Notes under the pieces: generated by a model
Seen by the model: only the letters and a program-made list of their open reading frames with translations
The model's database searches: none
What the model was told of the DNA's origin: nothing
Assembly: GCA_964016885.1 (NCBI GenBank)
Contig: OZ024740.1
Coordinates: 401,946,001-402,010,000, forward strand
Reading direction: 5' to 3'
DNA length: 64,000 nt
From: Eledone cirrhosa
Lineage: Eukaryota
Position numbers and translations under genes: made by a program
Part shown: positions 1-63,854 of the stretch, one piece after another
How the letters are laid out: each line of letters begins with the position of its first letter
How positions within the stretch are numbered: position 1 is the stretch's first letter

Positions 1-91
1 CACTTGCATGTTAATTTCATGAGCAGACCATCCGTTACCATATCATTCATCGCCATAATCGACGGAGTGTCAGTTTTATATATATATATAT

Positions 92-8700: not shown

Positions 8701-8702
8701 TA

Positions 8703-8928
8703 TTGTCAGTATCGGTAAAGCGTCGGACAACGTGATTTGCGGCATAGAGTTATGGGCCTCCACGTTCTGTTTTCAAATCCCACCGAGATTAACTTTGCTT
8801 TTCATCCTTACGGGGGTTGGTAAAATAAAGCACCAGTAATACACTGGGGTCGATTTGATCGACTTTACCTTCCCCTTAAAATTGCTGGCCCTGTGCCTAA
8901 AGTAGAAACAATTATTATTATTATTATT
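8703..8928 (+). mobile_element. SINE family A, 5'-truncated copy with (ATT)n tail
   Basis: Shares actttgc..ttcatcc..cgggg..gataaaataaag.accagta and aattgctggcc..gtgcc.aaagtagaaac with 14570, 27612 and 60582. Confidence 0.8.
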
Positions 8929-10929: not shown

Positions 10930-11130
10930 AAATCCAGTAAAAGCAGCGGTATAACTGTCTATCCATTTCTAGCTCTGGATTTCACCTAGACAGTGCTTCC
11001 CCATGCTTTCTGCTATAACTTGAAACAGGCGAAAATACATATGTTCAGCTGTGTAGATGGGATAGTTAGCATCATTTGCATATGAAGCTGTATAAGTTGA
11101 CTCAACTTAAATGTAGAATTAGTTTCGGCA
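10930..11130 (-). mobile_element. Degenerate copy of the 320-bp octamer/HHR element
   Basis: catttgcatatgaagctg.ataagttg.ctcaactta is shared with 25488-25524; the HHR core is decayed. Confidence 0.6.
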
Positions 11131-11810
11131 TACATGTATACATACATGCATGTGAATCTAAATTTTAAAAATTTCCACAAAAACAAATTTCGGTTTATTT
11201 CGATGGGATAATCATATCAACACTACATTGAGTATCAAAAGTCCTACCATAATAGAGTAGAATATAAGTGTGTTTATATATATATATAGTCGGAATATAT
11301 ATAGTTTTATGTTAGTCATGGCAATAGTCTGGTGGTGTAGCTTATTACTCAATGGGGTCGCAGCCGTTGCAGATAATAATGAATATTGTTTAATGCCTAT
11401 CTATATACAGAAACTGCGTAATTTGACGGCCGCCGCTAGAAAAATTCCGTCTCCTCCCTATACTCATATTTAGAACGAGTTAGGGGTTGGGAAAGATGGA
11501 TGATGGCTGAGGTTGGGTTTATGGAGGATGTCGTAGTTCTAGTATAAACATTTAGTTCATGACTGGCTTTGTTTTTAGGAATGGATTAATCACGAGTTCG
11601 AAATTCGATGGTCTTATCCACTAGATGACTTTCTTAATGTTAGCGTTAATTTCTCTATGTATTATTTACGTTTAATGCATTCAATAATGAGCTTTATTAT
11701 TCTAGTTATATCTACATTCAGATTTATGTATTTGAGGGTCCTACTTGCTTATTAGCATACACACACACATACAAACATACATACAAACACACACACACTC
11801 ACTCACACAC

Positions 11811-14216: not shown

Positions 14217-14569
14217 GTGAAATTTTAGTAAGTAAGTTAATTTTTATAATTTTCTTATTTTACGTCTCTCATATTATTGTTCTGCATCCCTATGCATTGA
14301 ACCACAAAGTTACTAAGACAAAACCTATATATTTGCTGGCATAGGTATGCATCTGTATATATATGTTAGTAGATATACTAATTCTTTATATATATATATA
14401 TATATAATCATCACCATCAGGTCAAGCTTGCTCAGCTTTCTACGACACGTTTCCTCCATCCATCTCTGTCTATTATAGCGTTTGCCAGTTCTTCCGCAGT
14501 GCATCCAGTATCGTCTTCAAGTTGCTTGACGTATGTCTTCTTGGGACGACCAGTGATTATATATACATA

Positions 14570-14762
14570 GGGCGGTGGATTGGCAGTATCGGTAGAGTGT
14601 CGGACGCCATGCTTTCCAGCATAGTTACGTCCCTTTACGATCTGAGTTCAAATCTCGCCGAGGTTGACTTTGCCTTTCATCCATACGGGGTCGATAAAAT
14701 AAAGTACCAGTAATGCACTGGTAATTGCTGGCCTTGTGCCTAAAGTAGAAACAATTATTATT
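14570..14762 (+). mobile_element. tRNA-derived SINE family A
   Basis: A-box-like tggcagtatcggt, B-box-like gagttcaaatc, (ATT)n tail; near-identical to 60582-60773. Confidence 0.85.
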
Positions 14763-16934
14763 ATATATACATATATATATATATTTGGCTATAATAACAG
14801 AGAAAAATATTCTTCCTCACACCAAATAAATCTATGATTTACCTTCATTTATATGAAAGTCACAATAAATACGCACCCACCTGCAATTCACACGCACACT
14901 CACTAACACACACACAGATATAATATATATTTATACATATATGTGTGTTGAAGGACTAGCGTCCGAAAAGTTATGACTTTGTTCCTTCTATATCAAGTGT
15001 AAAACTATTAATATATGTTTCCTTGTACTTGTGTTTGCTTTGTTAATTCAGTTTGCCTTTTGCATATCTATATTCGACTTTATATTACTAGTCAACCTTT
15101 ACATGCGTGTGTATATGTGGTATGTGTGTATATGTCTTTGTTGGTGGCATTGTGTCCATCCATGTATATATTATTAACATATATGTGTGTGAGTTTGTAT
15201 GTGTGTATGTTTGTATACACGCACCCACGCACATACGCACACACACACATATATTATTTTTATGTATAAAATACACTCACACATACATACATACAATCAG
15301 ACAAAAACACACACACATACATACATACATGTATATATTGATATATATATTGTTTCATCGACACGTGTATTAATTTTATACATTGTCTTTTGAAGAGTTT
15401 GGGAATTTGCATTCATTACGAGGTTCCGATCTGATTATAATTAGAAGAGAACTCTATAAAATATGTGGGAAGAAATAATGATAAAAATCATTATAGGCCA
15501 AGAGTAAGTAAAGAGCAAGGCTGCAGACAGGAAGAATAAAAAGAAAAGGGCTCAACAATGACTGAACAAAGAGGGAGGATACCTTACCATAAATAGATTT
15601 GCTGAGATTGTAGTAGCTAGTAGAAAAAGATTTACCAATCGATAAAGCATTTCCGACCCATGTCTTTATTTCTGTTCAGCACTCGACCTTATGCCGTAAT
15701 AATCTAGTTGCCGACTCCGGCCGTCTGATAAGAGCAGGGAGTAAATTAATATTGTCGGCCAGATTATAATCTTTAAAAGAACCAGTTTACCGTACATGAG
15801 AAGACGCCTTCAATAGCAGCAGTAGTAGCAGCACCAGCACCAACGAAAGAGGGTATAAAATGACAAAAATGTTATATATTTTCGATATTAGGTGATTAAA
15901 AAGAAAAATATTAATACTTAGTTACAAAAACGATATCTTAATTAATAATAGTTTCTAATAAATCACGATTTCTCAAATTTATATAAATGGGGTATAGTTG
16001 ATGAGATTACTAATTTTATTTGAATAATTCATTTTAATCCACCCCTGAATGATGAAAGTCAAATCCAACTTAGGCAGGAATCAAACTCAGAATGGAAGTG
16101 AGCATAACTAAACACTATAAACAAACACCTCAAAACACTTTGTCCACCGAGTGTCTGCCAATCCACCAAACTAAATAGCTTATACGATTATTTAATCATA
16201 CGCCGATTTCTTAATTTAATAATTAGAAGAAGGATTACTTAATTAGAATTTCTTACCTAATACTTTTATAAAAACGGAAATGAATATTTTGGGGATATCA
16301 CATCTTACTTAGGCACATTTTTTAAGTGGGACATGATTTAACATTAATTCAAAACCAGGTCTTAATCTAATTGGGATATCAGTTCGACTATATACTTAAA
16401 CACACATCTATCTGAATAACATAGACACAGGCCCTCAGTGTTTGAGTGACAGGATAGCATGCTAACATCCATACCAATATTTCAACAAACCCGTATCATG
16501 CTTACATTAGAGGAGTTGCATAATGATATTAGTGTATGACTGGTATGGTAGACTACAAATACAAACAAAATGTATCAGAGGGTCAATTGTGTAACGAAGA
16601 AGTATAAAGAAACGTTGGGTTAATACAGAAACTGCAGATTCCAGTGGATCTTTACTCATAGCAGAATGTTTAGAGTAACAGATATGTTAACGTATTATTG
16701 ATAGAACATTTCAGCAAAAGATATATTTATTGAAACTCCGGTTGATACCTTACCGAGAAAACCCTAAGGAATACAAATCATTGAGTGATTTACAACGGTT
16801 TACGAACAAGTCGGCGCATTATATGCATTATATGATCAACCAACTTTCATCAACTGACTAATATGTATATATATATAAACAAAATTCTAATTTTATTTTC
16901 AATATTCGGCAAGGCCAGTCGTAACTCGCTAGGT

Positions 16935-16983
16935 ATGCAAATGAGGCTACTCAGCCGATGTCTACTTACGAAAATGCTATATA
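16935..16983 (+). promoter_or_regulatory. Octamer (ATGCAAAT) - 35 nt - TATATA cassette upstream of an HHR
   Basis: The same motifs and 35-nt spacing occur on the minus strand at 25496-25448; promoter function is inferred. Confidence 0.5.
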
Positions 16984-17015
16984 TTTTCAACCGTTCAACA
17001 GACTAGCAGATGTAT

Positions 17016-17058
17016 ACTGTCCTGATGAAGGGTAATGACCCAGAAACATGTTGATTGT
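17016..17058 (+). ncRNA. Minimal type I hammerhead ribozyme motif
   Basis: actgtc CTGATGA a-gggt-aatg-accc-a GAAA CATG TT gattgt; palindromic loop III. Confidence 0.7.
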
Positions 17059-17197
17059 TCCTCAAAGCCAGTTTTGAACAAACAGCGGACGATCGATCAC
17101 CGGCACAGCTTCAAATCGGGCCTTTTGTTTACAAACGTATCGAACATATATAACCCATACGTACATATGTATATGTATATATGTATGTGTATGTATA

Positions 17198-18445: not shown

Positions 18446-19237
18446 CTAGCAGGAGTACCTAGCGTTGCCTGCGTAGGTAAAATAATATCTGCTTTGATCA
18501 TCGCGACTGCGTCTCGATGATTCATCTATGGCCACACACAGGCCATGCGGGGGTGGGTGGTGATGACCTCTATCACTGAGAAACACGGGTGACTGACGAA
18601 GGGGCAAGCTGGGGGAGGGAGTTTCGAAATTGAACGAAATCGGTTGAAAAATGTGGGAGCTAGAGCCGAAAAGGCGGAAATTTGAGCGAAAAGGTATTTT
18701 CAAATATTTAAGATGCTGCCACGCCATTTCTGAAAATAAAATCCAAAATGTAAAGCCACTTTAAGACGTGAAATAATCAGATCTAGCGTAGTTTAAAATT
18801 TAAACAAAGTAGGTTGATTAATATGGGAGCTAGAGCCGGGAAAGTGGAAATTTGAGTCTAAAAGTGGTGTTTTTGAATATTTAAGCGGCTGCCACGCCGT
18901 CCCATGAACAACAAATGCAAAATATAAAGCCATTACAGGATGTGCAATGATAAATCCTATTTTTGCTTTAAAATTTGAACGGAATCAGTGGCAAAATATG
19001 GGAGCTAGAGCCAAAAATCTTATTTTTCGATACCTAAAAAAAGGTGACACCCCTATAGATTTTTATCTGCAGAATGACCCCGGAATAAAGAAAAGATACG
19101 CTGATATATAGAAAACACTTCCCGATGACTAATCTATGAGCCTGTAAAGTTTCATGAAAATCGGTCGTAAGATATAGGCCCCTATAGGTAATACACAGAC
19201 ACACACCCACACATACTTAATTTTATATATATACAGA
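18446..19237 (-). mobile_element. Non-autonomous Helitron-like element
   Basis: Minus strand begins a|TC and ends CTAG|t; imperfect subterminal hairpin 18456-18479; three internal ~170-bp repeats (gggagctagagcc at 18655, 18825, 19000). Confidence 0.75.
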
Positions 19238-19816: not shown

Positions 19817-20034
19817 TAGAATAGAATGAAACGAAATTTCATTTCTCACCCTTAGCACGGCACTTACTTAAATGTAAGTATGTATGTATACGTACATACA
19901 TATATGTATACAGACGTACAGTAGTATGTATATATATACATACATGCACATATATATGCACGTATCGGTTTACCGTTAATATGCATAAGGAAAGTATATA
20001 CCTTCAGACGTTCAACCATCTGGCAGGAAGGTAT

Positions 20035-20077
20035 ATGATGCTGACGATAGCTAATAAGCTTGAAACTAGTACATCGT
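20035..20077 (+). ncRNA. Minimal type I hammerhead ribozyme motif
   Basis: atgatg CTGACGA t-agct-aata-agct-t GAAA CTAG TA catcgt. Confidence 0.85.
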
Positions 20078-20295
20078 TCCTGTGTCAGTGTTGAACAAAA
20101 AAGTTACGTGGTTGCCTAAACACTGTACGGCGTAATTCGGGCTGTTTGTTTGTTTACAAACAAACAGACCGAGCATTATAATAAATGTTCGGTAAACCGA
20201 TACGTGCATATATATATGTGTGCATGTATGTATATATATACATACTACTGTACGTCCGTATACATATATGTATATACGTATACGTACATACATAC

Positions 20296-25212: not shown

Positions 25213-25215
<3 letters not shown>

Positions 25216-25580
25216 AAATAAGATTTCGCTTCAAGCATAGCTTTATACAATATATATAGAAATTTCGTATTTATAAAGAAATACGGTTTTAGGAAGCCGT
25301 AGCTATGCAAACACCGGGGCTAATGCCCCCTGGTGGTGTCCACAGAAGCAAGGGGGACAACCGTCTATGCATTTCAGGCTTGACTGGCCTTCGTCAGGAC
25401 GCTCCCTCCCACCGCTTCCTACTGCTGGACTTGAAAACAGTCGAGAATATATAGTTTTCTCTTCTGTGTAAATGAGATGGTTAATCTCATTTGCATATGA
25501 AGCTGCATAAGTTGGCTCAACTTATAATAGAAAAGAAATAAGATTTCGCTTCAAGCATAGCTTTATACAATATGTATATA
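25213..25580 (-). mobile_element. 320-bp retrozyme-like monomer with a ~41-bp terminal redundancy, inserted in (TA)n
   Basis: aagaaataagatttcgcttcaagcatagctttatacaatat at 25213 and 25533; contains an HHR, an octamer and a TATA. Confidence 0.8.
25362..25401 (-). ncRNA. Minimal type I hammerhead ribozyme motif
   Basis: Minus strand: cgtc CTGACGA aggc-cagtcaa-gcct GAAA TGCA TA gacg; stems I and II fully Watson-Crick. Confidence 0.9.
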
Positions 25581-25689
25581 AATTATATATATACATATAT
25601 GTACGTGTATGTATATAAATTATATATATATATGTACGTGTTTACATATATATCTAGATATAAGCTAACCCGAATCTAGGTCATTAACA

Positions 25690-27611: not shown

Positions 27612-27612
<1 letters not shown>

Positions 27613-27788
27613 GGCAGTACCGGTAGAGGGTCGGACGCTATGCTTTGAAGCATAGAGTTACGGCCCTTGCCATTCTGAGTTCGAATCCCGCCGAGGTTAA
27701 CTTTGCCTTTCATCCTTACAGGGTCGATAAAATAAAGTACCAGTATTGCACTGGGTAATTGCTGGCTTTGTGCCCAAAAGTAGAAACA
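27612..27788 (+). mobile_element. tRNA-derived SINE family A
   Basis: Homologous to 14570; B box gagttcgaatcc. Confidence 0.85.
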
Positions 27789-49846: not shown

Positions 49847-49887
49847 CTATATATATATATATATGCTATATATATATATATATATAT

Positions 49888-49944
<57 letters not shown>

Positions 49945-49954
49945 TATATATATA

Positions 49955-50008
<54 letters not shown>

Positions 50009-50058
50009 TATATATATATACTATATATATATATATATATATATAGTATATATATATA

Positions 50059-50172
<114 letters not shown>

Positions 50173-50252
50173 ATATATATATATATATATATAGCATATA
50201 TATATATATATATATAGTATATATATATATGTATATATATACTATATATATA

Positions 50253-50298
<46 letters not shown>

Positions 50299-50394
50299 TA
50301 TTTACATATATATACTATATATATATACTATATATATGTATATATATAAATATATATATATACTATATATATATATACTATATATATATATATA

Positions 50395-50435
<41 letters not shown>

Positions 50436-50490
50436 ATATATATATATATAGTATATATATATACTATATATATACTATATATATATGTAT

Positions 50491-50572
<82 letters not shown>

Positions 50573-50621
50573 TATATATATATATATACTATATATATAT
50601 ATATACAATATATATATATAT

Positions 50622-50684
<63 letters not shown>

Positions 50685-50755
50685 TATATATATATATACT
50701 ATATATTTATATATACTATATATATATATATACAAGATATATATATATATATATA

Positions 50756-50792
<37 letters not shown>

Positions 50793-50849
50793 ATATATAT
50801 ATATATAGTATATATATATACTATATATATATACTATATATATATATAT

Positions 50850-50947
<98 letters not shown>

Positions 50948-51000
50948 TATATATATATATATATATATACTATATATATATATATACTATATATATATAT

Positions 51001-51039
<39 letters not shown>

Positions 51040-51088
51040 TATATATATATATACTATATATATATATATATACTATATATATATATAT

Positions 51089-51151
<63 letters not shown>

Positions 51152-51176
51152 TATATATATATATACTATATATATA

Positions 51177-51247
<71 letters not shown>

Positions 51248-51270
51248 CTATATATATATATATATATATA

Positions 51271-51330
<60 letters not shown>

Positions 51331-51351
51331 CTATATATATATATATATATA

Positions 51352-51382
<31 letters not shown>

Positions 51383-51408
51383 CTATATATATATATACTA
51401 TATATATA

Positions 51409-51456
<48 letters not shown>

Positions 51457-51474
51457 TATATATATATATATATA

Positions 51475-51544
<70 letters not shown>

Positions 51545-51600
51545 TGTATATATATATATATACTATATATATATATATATACTATATATATATATATATA

Positions 51601-51634
<34 letters not shown>

Positions 51635-51838
51635 TATATATATATATATATATACACTCTATATATATTTATTGAAATAACAGATTAAAGTTTAAGCAAA
51701 GAATCGCTGCTTTCACACTTAACGGGATCTTCTGAAACTAACAAAGTCAATCTGTAAACGCAGAACTGGATATTTCAAAAAACGTTGCAACCGGAGGAAG
51801 AGCCCTCTTTGGATTTTAGTCTTCAATTTTATTATTAT

Positions 51839-51878
<40 letters not shown>

Positions 51879-51888
51879 TATATATATA

Positions 51889-51926
<38 letters not shown>

Positions 51927-51942
51927 TATATATATATATATA

Positions 51943-52041
<99 letters not shown>

Positions 52042-52245
52042 TATATATATATATATAAACTATATATATATATACTATATATATATAGTATATATATACT
52101 ATATATATATATACTATATATATATATATATAAACTATATATATATATACTATATATATATATACTAAATATATATATATATATACTATATATATATATA
52201 TATACTATATATATATATATATACTATATATATACTATATTTAGT

Positions 52246-52870: not shown

Positions 52871-53594
52871 GGAGAACATGGTATGAAGGCTAAAAAACAC
52901 TTGTGGATAGTGCAGTTTTAAATCAACATATGAAAAGTGGTTTTAGATTGATGTGTGATATTGGGAAAAATATTTTATTTGGAGAGGGGGGTGGAAAGTT
53001 TGAAAAAGAGGAGGAGATGAGAGGGAGAGATGGGTGATAGAGAGAAAGAGATAGTTTTTATAACTGAGAGGAGATATATTGTTTTACATAGAGAGGTTGA
53101 AAACCGTTGGAAGATAATGTGTAAATTAAAAAAATTTGAAAATTAACGAAAGGAGGATATGTGCGAGGAAAAAGTATTTTATTTAGGGAGGGGGGGGATG
53201 AAAAAAGGGGGAGGAGATGAGAGTGAAGGTGGAGAGGGAGAGATGGGTGATAGAGAGAAAGAGATAGTTTTTATAACTGAGAGAAAGATATATTGTTTTA
53301 CATAGAGAGAGGTTGAGAACCGTTGGAAGATAATGTATAAATTAAAGGAATTTGAAAATTAACGAAGGGAATTTATGTATGAAGATAGAGAGAAGAAATA
53401 ATAATTGTGGATGAATATTCTAACGTCAAAAAAAGGGGTATGTTGATAAGTATTGTGGCAATTTCAAAATTAACGAAGAGAAAAATTATTAAGGTTTGTG
53501 TGTAGAAGGATTTGAGAAAAATAATGTGAAGTTAAAGTTTGTATATTGGAGGAATTGATAATATATGCGAATAAAGAGTTAATATGTATTAAGA

Positions 53595-55379
53595 ATGAGT
53601 TCGTTGATGGGGATGTTTAGTAAAGCCATCTTGGATAGAATTATCCCACAGGTTAGTTCTAATTGCTCTTCTTTGAACCTAAATTTATGGTTTGGTACTT
53701 CTGAGGTGATTGGCTGGTTCAACAAATTGAATAATAAAAACAAACTGAAATTTATTCAATTTGATATTGCCAGCTACTATTCCTCCATTTCGCCTTCACT
53801 TCTCAATAATGCTCTATCTTTCGCACTTAAATATTCTGACATCACCACAGATGAACTTCACATCATCCTCACCGCACGTAAAACCATCCTAGAGTTCAAC
53901 AACGAATATTGGACCAGAGCCGATACCTCTAACAACTTCGACATCACAATGGGAGCATCCGATTCATCCCAATTGACTGATTTAATTGGTATCTTCATTT
54001 TGAACTCTTTGAGTCGGAAAATTCCTCAACTTCGCGGTGGAATTTATCGTGACGATGGACTCTTTACTATCCTAAATTGCAATATAGTTAACCTTAATAT
54101 TATTAAGAACAATATACGTAATCTCTTTAACCAACATAACCTAAAAATTGAATTTGATAATAGTATCAAACTAGCTAATTTCTTGGATGTATCTCTTAAT
54201 CTTGACACTGGCCTATATTACCCTTACCATAAAAACAATGAGAACCTAAATTATGTTAACTTTAAATCTAACCATCCTACCAATATCAAGAATGCTATAG
54301 TTAGTAATATTGGAAAAAGAATATCTAACATATCCTCTAATAAAAACATCTTTGATGCTAACGCCAATTACTATAATAACGCACTTTCTAAAGCCGGCTA
54401 TCCAGATAAAATCAAATATAGTAAAGAAACAAATTCTAGAAAAACTTACAGTAGAATAATTAATCATGATCATTCCAATAATTTTAATAAAAGACCTAGA
54501 TACAAAAACATAATCTGGTATAATGCTCCTTTCTCCATCTCTATTAATAACAATATTCTTAAATTATTTTTTAGGGCCTTAAATAAATGCTTCCCTCCCT
54601 CACATATCTATAGTAAAATATTTAACAAACACACCATCAAATTTTCTTATTCCACATCCTCCAATATTTCCAACATCATCTCTAAACACAACAATAAAAT
54701 ACTAAATACTAAATCTCTTCCTTCCAACATTGAATTTCATAATAACAGTAATAGTACTCCCGACGTCATTGTAAACCCTAGGCTAACTTCTGTAAACCCA
54801 AATACAACGTCAAACACAACTTCGCTAAATGTTCATAATCCAACTCTAAATCAAGAAACTATTATTCCTATTATTCCTATCGCAAACAACTTCTCCAATC
54901 CAATTCCTTCTATAGATAACACTAGGTCACTCATTAATAATCTCTCTAATTGCAACTGCCGCATTAAAAATAAATGTCCTCTCAACAACCATTGTCTCGA
55001 TAAAAACTTAATTTATGAATGTAAAATTATAACTAGCACCAATTCCTTCACCTATTTTGGCTCCACTTCCACCTCTTTTAAAGCTCGTCTCTATAATCAT
55101 CATTCATCTTTCAAATACAAACTTAAAAGAACCAACACTGCTCTCTCAGAACTCATATGGTCCTTAAAAGACAAAAAAATTAAATATACCATCTTTTGGA
55201 AGAAGGTTTCTTCTGCATCCTCATACTTGAACAGCTCTCTATCTAAAATCTGTAATCTCTGCCTAAATGAAAAATTTACCATTATCTCTAACCTAGATTC
55301 TATAATAAATAGACGTACAGATTTGTTTTCTATCTGCCTGCATAAATTCCATAGAACTTTTCACAAAGTATACAGTTAA
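53595..55379 (+). CDS. PLE reverse transcriptase (N-terminally truncated) + GIY-YIG endonuclease, tentatively Nematis-like clade
   Basis: FIQFDIASYYSSI, ITMGA, IYRDDGL, NFLDVSLNL, SNHP; CNC..CPL..CL..LIY..YFGST..FKARLYNH..CNLCLNEK. The first ~6 codons come from the inverted arm. Confidence 0.93.
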   Translation: MSSLMGMFSKAILDRIIPQVSSNCSSLNLNLWFGTSEVIGWFNKLNNKNKLKFIQFDIASYYSSISPSLLNNALSFALKYSDITTDELHIILTARKTILEFNNEYWTRADTSNNFDITMGASDSSQLTDLIGIFILNSLSRKIPQLRGGIYRDDGLFTILNCNIVNLNIIKNNIRNLFNQHNLKIEFDNSIKLANFLDVSLNLDTGLYYPYHKNNENLNYVNFKSNHPTNIKNAIVSNIGKRISNISSNKNIFDANANYYNNALSKAGYPDKIKYSKETNSRKTYSRIINHDHSNNFNKRPRYKNIIWYNAPFSISINNNILKLFFRALNKCFPPSHIYSKIFNKHTIKFSYSTSSNISNIISKHNNKILNTKSLPSNIEFHNNSNSTPDVIVNPRLTSVNPNTTSNTTSLNVHNPTLNQETIIPIIPIANNFSNPIPSIDNTRSLINNLSNCNCRIKNKCPLNNHCLDKNLIYECKIITSTNSFTYFGSTSTSFKARLYNHHSSFKYKLKRTNTALSELIWSLKDKKIKYTIFWKKVSSASSYLNSSLSKICNLCLNEKFTIISNLDSIINRRTDLFSICLHKFHRTFHKVYS

Positions 55380-57370: not shown

Positions 57371-57430
<60 letters not shown>

Positions 57431-57434
<4 letters not shown>

Positions 57435-57770
57435 TTTCTAGCAGCCACCCTACTCGCCGTCAGGCACTAATCACAATCTTTCTGACTTGACCACTGGCCA
57501 TGTAACAATTCTTAGCCATTTTGAATTAGTTTTTGGCGGGGTTCATTAAGAATAATCTTTGTCCAATTGAATTTGTTTCCTGATGATTTCGAAACTCGTG
57601 AGATTTATCCATGATCGGATATTTCCATAAGCGAATGAAAACCCCGAGGGTAGAAACATGATTTTGGTATGTTTTTGTACATTTTTTCTTCTAACTTTCG
57701 TTTTGTACCTAATTGTGTATGGTTAACTCTATGTCTAGTCAATTTCTACGTGCGATTTGAAATACTAGGA
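57431..57770 (+). repeat. ~340-bp repeat; direct copy at 59827-60167, partial inverted copy at 37311-37370
   Basis: gcgctttctagcagccac...aatactagga in both copies. Confidence 0.9.
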
Positions 57771-57826
57771 AAATCTTCTGTGGCTGTGGATCGCGGATAA
57801 AATAGCTATCATTTATTTATATTTAT

Positions 57827-59781: not shown

Positions 59782-59830
<49 letters not shown>

Positions 59831-60581
59831 TTTCTAGCAGCCACTCTACTCGCCGTCAGACACTAATCACAAGCTGTCTGACTTGCCACTGGCAATGTAA
59901 CAATTCTTAGCCATTTTGAATTCGTTTTTGGCGGGGATCCTTTAAGAATAATCTTTGTCCAATTGAATTTGTTTCCTGATGATTTCGAAACTCGTGAGAT
60001 TTATCCATGATCGGATATTTCCATAAGCGAATGCAAACCCCGAGGGTAGAAACATGATTTTGGTATGTTTTTGTACATTTTTTCTTCTAACTTTCATTTT
60101 GTATCTAATTGTGTATGGTTAACTCTATGTCTAGTCAATTTCTACGTGCGATTAGAAATACTAGGAATCATGATGATTAGCGGAAATTTAAAATATTTCC
60201 TTTTTCGCTAAGTTTTTGAATAACCGCCTGGGACCGGGGTTATTCCCTTGCCGGAATTAGCACGTGATAATTATAGATACGATTAGCAGCTTATAGCAGC
60301 AACATATAATTTGTCACTCCGATCCCAGGAAGAGCGATAAACCTGTTGATAAACTGAATCCAACGTTCGATCACCAATAACAGGAGCTTGCCTTTCAAGT
60401 AAGTCTGATATTTGATTTCGGATTCAAAGAAACACTTTGAACGACTGTTCGTTTAATTTGAACAGGTGTACTTTTTCTCAACCTGATTAGTTCTATCGTT
60501 GCTATGGTATATATTGTGTGTTAGTTTAGCCTTCCACAATGTTCGATTTGTCAATCTATTTAAACGTATGTTATTACTATA

Positions 60582-60773
60582 AGGGCGGTGGATTGGCAGT
60601 ATCGGTAGAGGGTCGGATGCCATGCTTTCCAGCATAGTTACGTCCCTTTACTATCTGAGTTCAAATCTGGCCGAGGTTGACTTTGCCTTTAATCCTTACG
60701 GGGTCGATAAAATAAAGTACCAGTAATGCAGTGGGTAATTGCTGGCCTTGTGCCTAAAGTAGAAACAGTTATT
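60582..60773 (+). mobile_element. tRNA-derived SINE family A
   Basis: Near-identical to 14570-14762. Confidence 0.85.
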
Positions 60774-61714
60774 ACTCTAAGGACCTACCATATCGAGTGC
60801 TTTGCTAACTCATCACTTCATATAAGTAGGCCGAATTCACTTGCAAACCGCCAGAGATTCGATTTTACTGATTTCCAATTATATATATATATATATATAT
60901 AATTATTGAAATTTCCGTTGGAAACAGAAAAGGTCATAGAAATGAAGAGTGCTCTATGTAAGTATCAGAGCAAAATTTAATGTATAAAATCAACACAATT
61001 ACCTCATTACCAGAGGTTTCCCGAATGAGGCGAATACGAAATAAACAACTTCATTCGTTCGTCAGACGAGGCAATATAAAACATGGGCAAATACTTAGAA
61101 AAACACATCAAGAAAATCAAAAAAAATATATAGATAAATGAAATAGAAATTGAAATATATAAAAAATCTATCAAGAAAAATAGTTAGGTGTGTGTATGTG
61201 TATGTATATACGCTCACAGATATGCATATATGTATATATGCACATGTAAATGTATAGTTAGAAAGTGTGCGTAATTATAAAAATTTAGGGCAAATGTATC
61301 TATATGTCTGTATTATACAGACAGAAATGGTTACATCGTAAATATAAGAATATAAAGTCGCGCGCATAAAAACGCCTGGACACTCGTACACTTAGATGTG
61401 GAAAGAAAGGAGGTAAAGATAGTATAATAATTAAAAGAAAAGTATCTGTCTCGATATATTTATAAAAATATAGTAACGATAAATTAGAAAGAAAAGATAG
61501 AAAGAAAAAATTAAAGAAAACAAAAAAAGAGGGGGTACATACATACACGGACACGCGTGTCTCACAAAAGAAATGTAAAAATAATTAAACTTATATACAC
61601 ACACGCACTTACACTTCCATACGTTCGATACGTACATACACACACACACACATACTTATACTCGCGCATATAAACCTGTATGCATGCCCACGTATGCATG
61701 CCCACGTATGAAAC

Positions 61715-63854
61715 TCTTGAGAGCGGTGTGGACGAGAGAGAGGGGGTAACCTCTGGGGATGAAATGGCTGACTAGGGAAAGGGGCTGGGACTCAAAGTCA
61801 CTATCTAGGCTACAGAGGCGGCGGATCCTGAGGAGTTGGGAGTAGGGAATAGAGTGTTTAGTGTGTGTGGGTGGGAAGAGGTGAAGTCAAGGTAGGAGTG
61901 GGAGTCGGTGGGTTTGAAGAAGGCGGAGGTGACGAGGGAGTGGTGGGAGGGGTCGAAGGCGACGGAGATGTCTAAGAAGTGGACGTGGGTGGTGGAGATA
62001 GAGGTGGTGAAGTGGAGGGAGGGGTGGAAGGAGCAGAAGAAGGAGAGAAAGGAGTCGAGCTGTTCTCGGGTGAGGGTCGTGGCTCCGATACAGTCGTCGA
62101 TGTAACGACCGTACAGTTCGGGCGTGGGGCCGGTATACACGCAAAGATTTGGGCCTCAACATGGCCAACAAAAGGGTTGGCACAGTTTGGGCCCATTCTT
62201 GTACCCATGGCTACACCCGTGACCTGTTGGTAAAACTCACCCGAGAAGGAGAAACAGTTGAGGGTGGGGACGAGCTCGGCGAGGCGAAGGATGGTGGGGG
62301 TGGAAGAGGTGGGGAGGGGCGAGAGTCGAGGTAGTGCTTGAGGGCACGTAGGCCGTCGTCGTGGAGGATGACGGTATAGAGGGACTTGATATCTAGGGTG
62401 AAGAGGAAGGGCTGTGGGCCGGGTGGGTAGGTGAAGGAGTCGAAAAGGCGCAGGACGTGATTGGTGTTGGAGATGTGGGAGGGGAAGGTGGTGACAAGGG
62501 GGGCGAGGATGGAGTCAAGGAAGGCGGAGATGAGTTCGGTGGGGCAGTTGCAAGAGGAGACGATGGGGCGGCCGGGGTTGTCGGGTTTGTGCAGTTTGGA
62601 GAGGAAGTAGATGGTGGGGGTGCGGACGATGAGGTGGGAAGCGATGGGGCGGGGGATGAGGGAGGAGGAGACAAGGTGTTGGATGGTGGAGTAAACTTGT
62701 TGTTGGTAGAGGGGTGTGGGATCGGAGGGTAGAGGGCGGTAGAAGAGGGGGTTACGAAGCTGCCTGAGGGCTTCGGCCGTGTAGAGGTCCGCGCGCCACC
62801 CACCACGGCGCCTCCCTTGTCCGCCGGTTTGATGACGATGTCATCTCGGCTACGGAGGGAGCGGATACCGAGGAGTTCGCCCCGTGAGATGTTATTCCGT
62901 TTGGAACGGTGGCGGAAGTCGAAGCGATTTACGGCGCTACGGCTGGCATCGACGAACGCGTCCAGGGTGCTAAATTGCCCTGGGGCCGGCGTCCAAGATG
63001 ATGGTCGTCGGCCCAGGGCGAGAAACGGGACTGGGGCGCTCGGAGCCGGTGGCGTTTGACCGAAATGTGCCTGTAGCTTCGTGCGTCGCACGAATCGCTC
63101 GACTTCCGTTCGGGTGCGGAACTCGTCGCTGTGCGGAGTGTGGAGTATGAAGCGAAGGCCTCTAATGAGGAGTGAGCGCTCAGGTGCGGAGAGGGGGAGG
63201 TCAGGGGTATGGTGACAACAAGTGGTGGGGTTTGGGTGTGTGAGGGAGGAAGGGAGGGTGTGGTGAGGGGTGAGGTGTAGGGTGGAGATTGGGTAGGGGT
63301 GTGGGTTGAGGGAGGGGTGGAGAGTGGTTGGGATGGGTGGAATGGGGGACTCATAGGGATGGTCGGGTGGTGATGGATGGGGTGGTTGGGAGGAGTGCGT
63401 GTAGCTTACAGTCTTTGGTGGAGGTGAGGAAGGAGAAGAGGTCGTGGTTGAGGTTTTGGATGAAGATGAGGATGGCGTGGGCGAGGAGGGGGTGGCAGGC
63501 GGAGTTAAGGCGGAGGAGGGTGGGGGGCAGTTGGTTGTCAAGTTTGCGGATGGTGGAGCGGGAGGCGCGGATGGAGTTGCGCATTAGGAGGCGCGAGGAT
63601 CGGGTGAGGATACGTTAGGTGGAGGGGGAAGCCTGGGAGGGGGATGTGTGGAAGTGTAGATGGAAGCCGATGGGGATAAGGTGGAGGTGGAGGCAGCGGC
63701 TGAGGAAATGGATGTGGCTGGAGTGCCGGGTTTTGGCGAAGAGAAGGTAGGACGTTGAAGGGCCGAGGGGAGATAGCAGGGTGGGAGGAGGGTGGGTAAG
63801 GAAAAGTTTGAGGCTAGTGTGGTGTTGGTGGAGAAAGGATCTCAGTCTGGGCAT
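61715..63854 (-). pseudogene. Frameshifted GC-rich Penelope-like element ORF (N-terminus + RT, no endonuclease), tentatively Neptune-like
   Basis: HIHFLSRCL..IPIGF, DIVIKPADKGGAVV, KLHKPDNPGRPIVS, LDIKSLYT, MGTRMGP, YGRYIDDCIG, FLDI and KPTDSHSYL..SSHP, spread over several frames. Confidence 0.9.

Follow-up and report, generated by a model that had tools for sequence, protein, structure and literature searches.

What drives transcription of a short non-coding hammerhead repeat in a cephalopod genome, and can the repeat carry that promoter with it when it moves? The question arises in a window of 64,000 nucleotides (the whole stretch of DNA analyzed here) from Eledone cirrhosa (assembly GCA_964016885.1, contig OZ024740.1, positions 401,946,001 to 402,010,000 of the forward strand), where an octamer, a TATA box and a hammerhead ribozyme follow each other in one repeat copy, E17. 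Our best reading, partly supported by the comparison of copies, is an upstream-type promoter carried within the repeat unit. It is probable that the head of these elements holds a promoter of some kind, and conservation suggests that a compact promoter of octamer and TATA under selection is the likely form. The specific reading, a retrozyme-type family with a built-in octamer-35-TATA promoter and the cycle proposed below, we regard as evenly poised between right and wrong. The features of E17 are:

16878..17164, plus strand: E17, a solitary, decayed copy of ~287 nt; bounds approximate (left, a short TA run; right, a TATG/TA microsatellite)
16934..16945, plus strand: octamer block, 12 nt, with the octamer ATGCAAAT at 16935-42; identical in E25, 11/12 in E11
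16943..16977, plus strand: spacer, 35 nt; 19/35 letters as in E25, no gaps; in PSE position if the inferred start is right
16978..16983, plus strand: TATATA box, a sequence match
17005..17009, plus strand: purine at TATA+27 and GCAG at TATA+28..31, at like offsets in E17, E25, E20 and E11
17016..17058, plus strand: type I hammerhead; stem I 17016-21 with 17053-58, core 17022-28, stem II 17030-41, GAAA 17043-46, palindromic helix III 17046-51, predicted cut after 17052
17059..17164, plus strand: tail in common with E20, 60/81 aligned letters (z 6.0)

An earlier note on this DNA had reported the octamer, the 35-nt gap, the TATATA box and the CTGATGA core at 17022, and each was found as described. 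The octamer-TATA-hammerhead layout is far above chance. When the repeat-masked window was simulated 40 times with an order-3 Markov model, an octamer followed after 35 nt by TATAWA was expected 0.025 times per window and was observed twice, and the full layout occurred in none of the 40. The octamer by itself was not enriched (3.0 expected and 4 observed in the same simulations). The related copies in the window are:

25213..25584, minus strand: E25, a young copy with a 320-nt unit; octamer 25496-89, TATATA 25453-48, core 25397
10930..11157, minus strand: E11, an old copy that matches E25 at 72% over 179 nt; undamaged octamer at 11081-74
19874..20295, plus strand: E20, with an intact hammerhead; core 20041, TATATA 19995
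47823..48897, both strands: E48, a related, young 310-nt hammerhead repeat; TATAAG 48687, no octamer

E25 bears out what had been said of an element near 25.4 kb, that it has the same motifs at the same gap of 35 nt, and the TATATA of the 20-kb element E20 does precede its core by 40 nt. The spacers of E17 and E25 had been described as different. Their letters do differ, but the spacers are homologous and colinear (21/35 against the family majority), and the equal 35-nt gap therefore reflects common descent in part. A third octamer copy, which the earlier note did not contain, lies in E11 (11081, minus strand), with a gap of 32 nt, a mutated TATA box (TATGTA at 11041), a broken core and an unalignable tail. 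No octamer was found at the matching place in E20, which ends abruptly 19 nt upstream of its TATA and has its own 3′ end repeated in inverted orientation in front of it (19874-19975 vs 20190-20295, 92%); truncation may account for the missing octamer. An octamer-like ATGCATAA is seen at 19981-19988, just 14 nt before the TATA of E20, and could be either the octamer block moved close by a spacer deletion or sequence of the inversion junction. E48 comprises 2.5 head-to-tail units on the minus strand and one inverted copy on the plus strand inside (TA)n, one unit having a 13-nt deletion in stem II, and this region may be misassembled. The octamer is absent from two of the five lineages examined (E20 and E48). 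A sequence model of the five copies found no further members above 13 bits in the window besides the E48 tandem copies. Among the tails, E17 and E20 align and the other nine pairs reach z 2.8 at most, with no clear match of the E17 tail to those of E25, E11 or E48. An upstream terminal repeat for E17 (16798-823 vs the E20 tail) was considered and rejected, its score of 27 being equalled or exceeded by 5 of 92 unrelated windows.

Judged by pairing and covariation, the hammerheads in these copies are real. A type I descriptor (helix I of ~6 bp, helix II of 4 bp, short palindromic helix III) matched six sites in the window, five of which have the palindromic helix III (E17, E20, E25 and two E48 copies). 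Of the 60 cells in the alignment of the five rows, 55 are paired, and both sides have changed in 9 of the 12 pairs across the five copies, a number that none of 500 shuffles reached, the structure being drawn from the same five rows. Two paired positions of stem II both vary among E25 relatives, from G-C towards A-U, as unphased changes. Stem I of E17 keeps five of its six pairs, with one mismatch and one wobble, which suggests that the E17 ribozyme is probably a weak or dead copy. The build is the canonical metazoan one, which is thought to act as a dimer (PMC4209133). At gathering score, Rfam gave no matches in the window, leaving the hammerheads undetected and indicating no snRNA gene; among 150 listed of the 229 Rfam matches with E up to 5 between 10.5 and 26 kb there was no hammerhead, and these 150 were microsatellite matches to miRNA-type models.

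The promoter-like head is where the copies agree best. Octamer and TATA of E17 agree with the E25 majority at 14/14 positions, compared with 39/65 in the rest of the colinear block (Fisher p 0.002, with the motif positions chosen after the match was seen), and an identical run of 12 nt anywhere in the block has p 0.14. The octamer is kept at 8/8 positions in three copies (E17, E25 and E11), against 7/20 upstream and 13/30 downstream. Past the box, GCAG stands at TATA+28..31 in all four of E17, E25, E20 and E11, anchored to TATA without gaps, with pyrimidine-purine at TATA+26/27 and CA fixed at TATA+29/30, and 5 of the 22 letters between TATA and GCAG are invariant across these copies. The TATA-anchored register 0 is the best one in 6/6 copy pairs. 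The distance from GCAG to the core varies (12, 24, 14 and 21 nt in E17, E25, E20 and E11), with indels after GCAG in every lineage and none before it. If the CA at +29/30 is the start, TATA would fall at -30, the spacer at -65 to -31 and the octamer at about -73; TATA usually lies near -30 (PMC7279448), and the location described for the PSE matches the -65 to -31 region (PMC9652321). From these offsets, the RNA start in E17 is predicted at 17008 (or 17005). The literature searched yielded no mollusc PSE motif. In E48 the TATA box is at a similar distance from the basal stem as in the other copies, and the spacer agrees at 18/35 positions at the TATA-anchored register, a value exceeded among 319 TATA sites only by E25, E17 and one unrelated site.

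A comparison across genomic copies, which the earlier note had proposed as a check, placed none of at least 11 polymorphic places out of 320 within the motifs, an outcome to be expected among such close E25 relatives (p 0.61 from the listed rows of run X1, p 0.44 on adding seven further X1 rows; 40 of 115 rows listed). At 1–3 RAD loci there is a TATA change or a spacer deletion of 1 or 8 nt, amounting to <0.1% of contig depth. A depth peak at the octamer bin was dropped as evidence of conservation, as depth follows likeness to E25, and RAD reads starting at 25496 probably mark a restriction site. An internal promoter remains the best reading in view of the fixed TATA-GCAG distance, the motifs lying inside the unit and the excess of identity in octamer and TATA. 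Selection on it, as the earlier note had it, is likely; this claim is weakened by the p value of the 12-nt run, by hairpins that overlap the motifs and by the octamer missing from two of five lineages.

The unit that carries the octamer and TATA is a high-copy one. Unit sizes are 320 nt in E25, 310 nt in E48 and ~287 nt in E17, with a GC content of 0.34–0.42 and no credible coding frame in the units. With the E25 unit as the only reference and a likeness of 80%, 3710 and 3854 contigs and 1806 and 1549 RAD reads were matched in four of the six sequencing runs listed. The summed contig depth on the E25 unit was 189,000 and 197,000, compared with 5–17 for 16 long pieces listed. The E25 family has roughly ten thousand copies, a depth-based figure and not a strict copy number. 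E25 itself is bounded by terminal direct repeats of 52 nt (25213-64 and 25533-84, 50/52 identical, 320 nt apart), and its 3′ end sits on a (TA)n run. Among diverged E25 records some join the terminal repeat to the promoter side and others to the unit start, and the loose ends past the terminal repeat are (TA)n-like or the start of the unit itself. Because of these joints and TA-rich ends, the order repeat-body-repeat-(TA)n can be taken as a trait of the E25 family. No true dimers or multimers of this family were seen: the joint records have at most 46 letters on the shorter side (15 of 38 rows listed), and this maximum coincides exactly with the edge of the terminal repeat. A joint of 25578 to 25265 was rejected as proof of a multimer since any copy with both terminal repeats yields it. 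The tandem state is 2.5 units in E48 (in the possibly misassembled region) and 1.16 units in E25, and E17 is solitary. Features of tRNA-derived SINEs were not found: A and B box patterns were unmatched in 5/5 units and ARAGORN reported 0 genes.

The surroundings are rich in repeats, with 88 tandem-repeat rows, mostly (TA)n, and frames of Penelope-like reverse transcriptases, and Pfam named none of the retroelement frames of the window. One frame is a candidate helper:

53583..55379, plus strand: Penelope-like ORF for RT and endonuclease; its linker is CxCX5C, as in the Hydra clade that targets (TA)n

This frame had 109 protein matches, the best in Argonauta hians (35%) and the one of highest identity in Octopus sinensis (48% over 32% of the query). 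No shared tail linking it to the hammerhead elements was found, and no RT frame adjoins E11, E17, E20 or E25 in the window. Partial tandems, 5′ inversions and (TA)n targets are described as hallmarks of Penelope-like elements, as is the CxCX5C linker for those of the (TA)n-targeting Hydra clade (PMC8557442), and the tandem and inverted arrangement of E48 and E20 agrees with the insertions described there. The E17 family is likely to consist of non-LTR retrozymes mobilized by Penelope-like elements.

Several other features of the window were observed. The elements at 53583-55379 and 39324-40334 are Hydra-clade-like Penelope elements with the CxCX5C linker, YRDD and a GIY-YIG-like end, and hammerhead-like cores with a long stem II region occur with such elements at 41321 (plus strand) and 52862 (minus strand). 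A Penelope-like RT of another type, GC-rich and frameshifted, is located at 61805-63583 on the minus strand. Two near-identical fold-back palindromes of 120 nt lie beside (TA)n at 42276-42397 and 43992-44115, each with a CTGATGA core and GAAA ~20 nt on; they are either a real inversion or an assembly artefact. An inverted pair of a 186-nt segment (144-329 and 559-733, 88%), each with a CTGATGA core, also lies beside (TA)n runs, a duplicated segment of 387 nt (57386-57771 and 59782-60167, 96%) has a minimal hammerhead-like core with GAAA 11 nt after the core start, and at 18593-19017 a CTGACGA core that the type I descriptor did not match is followed by a diverged tandem repeat of ~170–180 nt (74%). 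An abundant repeat of ~190 nt has five copies (1742-1848, 8702-8921, 14569-14782, 27612-27809 and 60582-60774); we take it to resemble an octopus SINE, and a protein search with one of its frames gave no match. Degenerate (TA)n arrays of great length, in which internal blocks recur, extend over 29973-35798 and 42397-52240, there is a gap of 200 N at 41986-42185, and the assembly around the long arrays may be unreliable.

How an upstream promoter could be retained by such a repeat can be set out as a cycle. In the proposed cycle the octamer, the 35-nt spacer and the TATA box would act as a compact promoter, with RNA starting ~30 nt past TATA, ahead of the ribozyme. A promoter upstream of the start is lost in retrotransposition unless the RNA continues into the next unit. 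At a multi-unit source locus the polymerase would pass one hammerhead, a whole unit and then the next hammerhead, and the paired hammerheads would cut out a monomer that contains the promoter of the next unit. This monomer would be circularized, copied for one lap or more by a Penelope-like RT and inserted in (TA)n; copying the circle for more than one lap would produce terminal redundancy as seen in E25. Sources would then have to be copies of about two units, and single-lap copies such as E17 and E25 would keep the promoter as DNA but be unable to regenerate it. The different families would have the promoter-ribozyme head in common and differ in their tails. The start near +30, the polymerase, the cleavage, the circle and the helper are all steps that we infer. 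A broader version, in which several cephalopod hammerhead families share a head of ~75 nt directly before the ribozyme, in ~ten thousand copies, seems to us doubtful, if worth stating: the head would consist of the octamer or a PSE block, 35 nt, TATA and a start at +30, cleavage would trim the leader and the circle would carry the next promoter.

For the polymerase we have a weak preference, by analogy, for Pol II or dual use over Pol III. One lap would cross two T4 runs in E25 and likewise in E48, and RPPH1, whose distal element adjoins the PSE, is described as serving both polymerases (PMC9652321), which is why Pol II or dual use is favored. No T5+ run is present in any unit, and none on the opposite strand either; the argument is weak because of this equal absence.

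The chief rival, which we consider unlikely, takes the conserved block to be the PSE (SNAPc site) of this lineage in place of a site for an Oct factor, making the head a captured U6-type Pol III promoter of PSE and TATA. Over the first 11 letters of the U6 PSE predicted for Schistosoma japonicum, the block agrees at 9/11 positions in E17 and E25 and 8/11 in E11, 9/11 is reached by only E17 and E25 among the 319 TATA sites in the window, and the schistosome PSE is predicted to start at -71 compared with about -73 for the block (PMC5460494); in human, PSE together with TATA selects Pol III (PMC9652321). However, the schistosome PSE is itself a prediction (PMC5460494) and the 11-letter window was picked after looking, the whole motif matches at only 10–12 of 21 positions, and its PSE-TATA distance is 35 compared with 43 here. 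E48 is without the block. Pol III could also end short of a full lap at the T4 runs of E17 (+65), E11 (+70) and E48 (+67); E25 and E20 have no T4 run at this place. A more improbable explanation is that these letters are conserved for a role in RNA, as hairpins or as protein or RT recognition sites of a self-paired circular RNA, and that the resemblance to a promoter is superficial. Whole units as circles do fold far better than shuffles (z -4.6 for E25 and -4.9 for E48, 60 shuffles each), predicted hairpins in E25 cover the 3′ half of the octamer, where one of 9 bp opens, and the flanks of TATA (z -3.7), a hairpin over TATA is predicted in E48 (equally stable at 1% of 172 background sites) and in E25 (12%), and a palindromic TATATA could aid dimer formation. 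Yet folding of the octamer/TATA region above background was not found in E17, E20 or E11, the box of E48 is not palindromic, and stems would not require an exact TATA-GCAG distance across differing arms. Neither TATA nor the 5′ half of the octamer is paired, and TATA lies in the hairpin loops of the two young lineages, so stem pairing fails to explain its conservation.

Neutral inheritance appears to us equally improbable: the copies would be homologues of ~60% identity whose motifs and gap were picked post hoc, with transcription coming from flanking host read-through. The comparison does rest on only three octamer-bearing copies, chance octamers are common (3.0 per window), the 12-nt run has the p value given above, and the whole block is colinear, the spacer (21/35) and the stretch from TATA to GCAG (13/22) being identical to this extent without gaps. 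Against this, the best-kept runs are a textbook octamer, a TATA box and a +30 site in promoter geometry, indels occur after GCAG in every lineage and not before, and the E48 spacer is best at the TATA-anchored register, where one unrelated site of the 319 exceeds it. The copies might also be solo pseudo-LTR pieces of an autonomous Penelope-like element whose promoter this would be, a very remote prospect in our judgment. Pseudo-LTRs are described as holding the start site and a hammerhead, in elements with partial tandems, inversions and (TA)n targets (PMC8557442), but no RT frame lies beside E11, E17, E20 or E25 in the window, E25 is closed by its own terminal repeat with loose ends that are (TA)n-like or unit start, and the hammerhead-like cores beside the Penelope-like ORFs of the window differ in build.

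Animal retrozymes are abundant as circular RNAs and the paper that defines them names no promoter in its main text (PMC7229834); the question can be put directly to the test with a module of 75 nt that has a predicted start base and cut site and two boxes open to mutation. The proposed cycle would explain how an upstream-type promoter survives retrotransposition. If the broader version with a shared head is true, invertebrate non-LTR retrozymes would have in that head their first defined promoter, and it would reveal the snRNA-type promoter code of cephalopods and could offer a ready driver for small RNAs. According to a 2026 preprint (10.64898/2026.09.23.753964), functional promoters are unidentified in cephalopods, where a compact native promoter would be useful. 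In the openly licensed literature searched we found neither a description of cephalopod retrozymes nor an invertebrate retrozyme with an octamer-TATA promoter. In the giant squid genome 235 hammerhead matches were counted and not described, as far as given in PMC6962438, and a term search of the supplements of PMC4918200 and PMC2837043 found no octamer, the PMC2837043 rows consisting mostly of dots. The full ribozyme with the layout was found in none of the other pattern-scan stretches (25, 0, 4 viral, 19 metagenome and 55 prokaryote), where the viral, metagenome and prokaryote ones serve only as chance background, and model R1 had 0 matches in 78 loci (L026-L103). At the metagenome loci L042 and L044 (match at 601) a CTGATGA core with a 5-bp stem II may be a real hammerhead; the upstream octamer and TATA look accidental there (TA run, gaps of 32 and 36).

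Metazoan non-LTR retrozymes were defined by Cervera and de la Pena (2020) and reported from mussel among others (PMC7229834). Retrozyme units are taken to be non-coding, 150–450 nt long and of GC <50%, and E25, E48 and E17 lie within these ranges. Like the retrozymes described in that paper, the elements have a type I hammerhead with palindromic helix III, a non-coding unit of 310–320 nt, a GC content of 34–42%, strong self-pairing and Penelope-like elements nearby, and in these sequence features they resemble non-LTR retrozymes. They differ in that the E25 family consists mainly of one unit plus a 52-nt terminal repeat and not of long arrays, and in that a promoter-like module precedes the ribozyme here; no natural promoter is named in the main text of PMC7229834, where "promoter" occurs twice, both times for T7. 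Compared with type 3 promoters of U6, 7SK and H1, the head is alike in having a PSE-sized gap, an octamer and a TATA that would lie near -30 on the predicted start (PMC7279448, PMC9652321, PMC11340601). The type 3 octamer is normally described at -170 to -250, whereas the start inferred here would put it at about -73, nearer to the exceptional arrangement of RPPH1. The head also differs from type 3 in that no PSE was identified, there is no T5+ terminator in the units and the module is inside a mobile repeat.

In immunoglobulin V and histone H2B genes, the Pol II promoter has an octamer a few turns upstream of the TATA box. These are promoters of vertebrate protein-coding genes, and the E17 head may resemble them in this respect. 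Newt satellite 2, the work of Coats et al. in 1994, reportedly has a TATA-less Pol II snRNA promoter with octamer and PSE. It is like the present elements in being a hammerhead repeat of ~330 nt with a snRNA-type promoter inside the unit, and unlike them in lacking the TATA that is present here with an octamer-TATA gap of 35 nt. The hammerhead satellite of schistosomes (Ferbeyre et al., 1998) is described as having its own promoter too, in another lophotrochozoan (PMC2220036); that internal promoter is given as a Pol III one, while here no A or B box was matched and the motifs are of the upstream type. Hammerhead repeats with an internal promoter are already known from newt and schistosome (PMC2220036).
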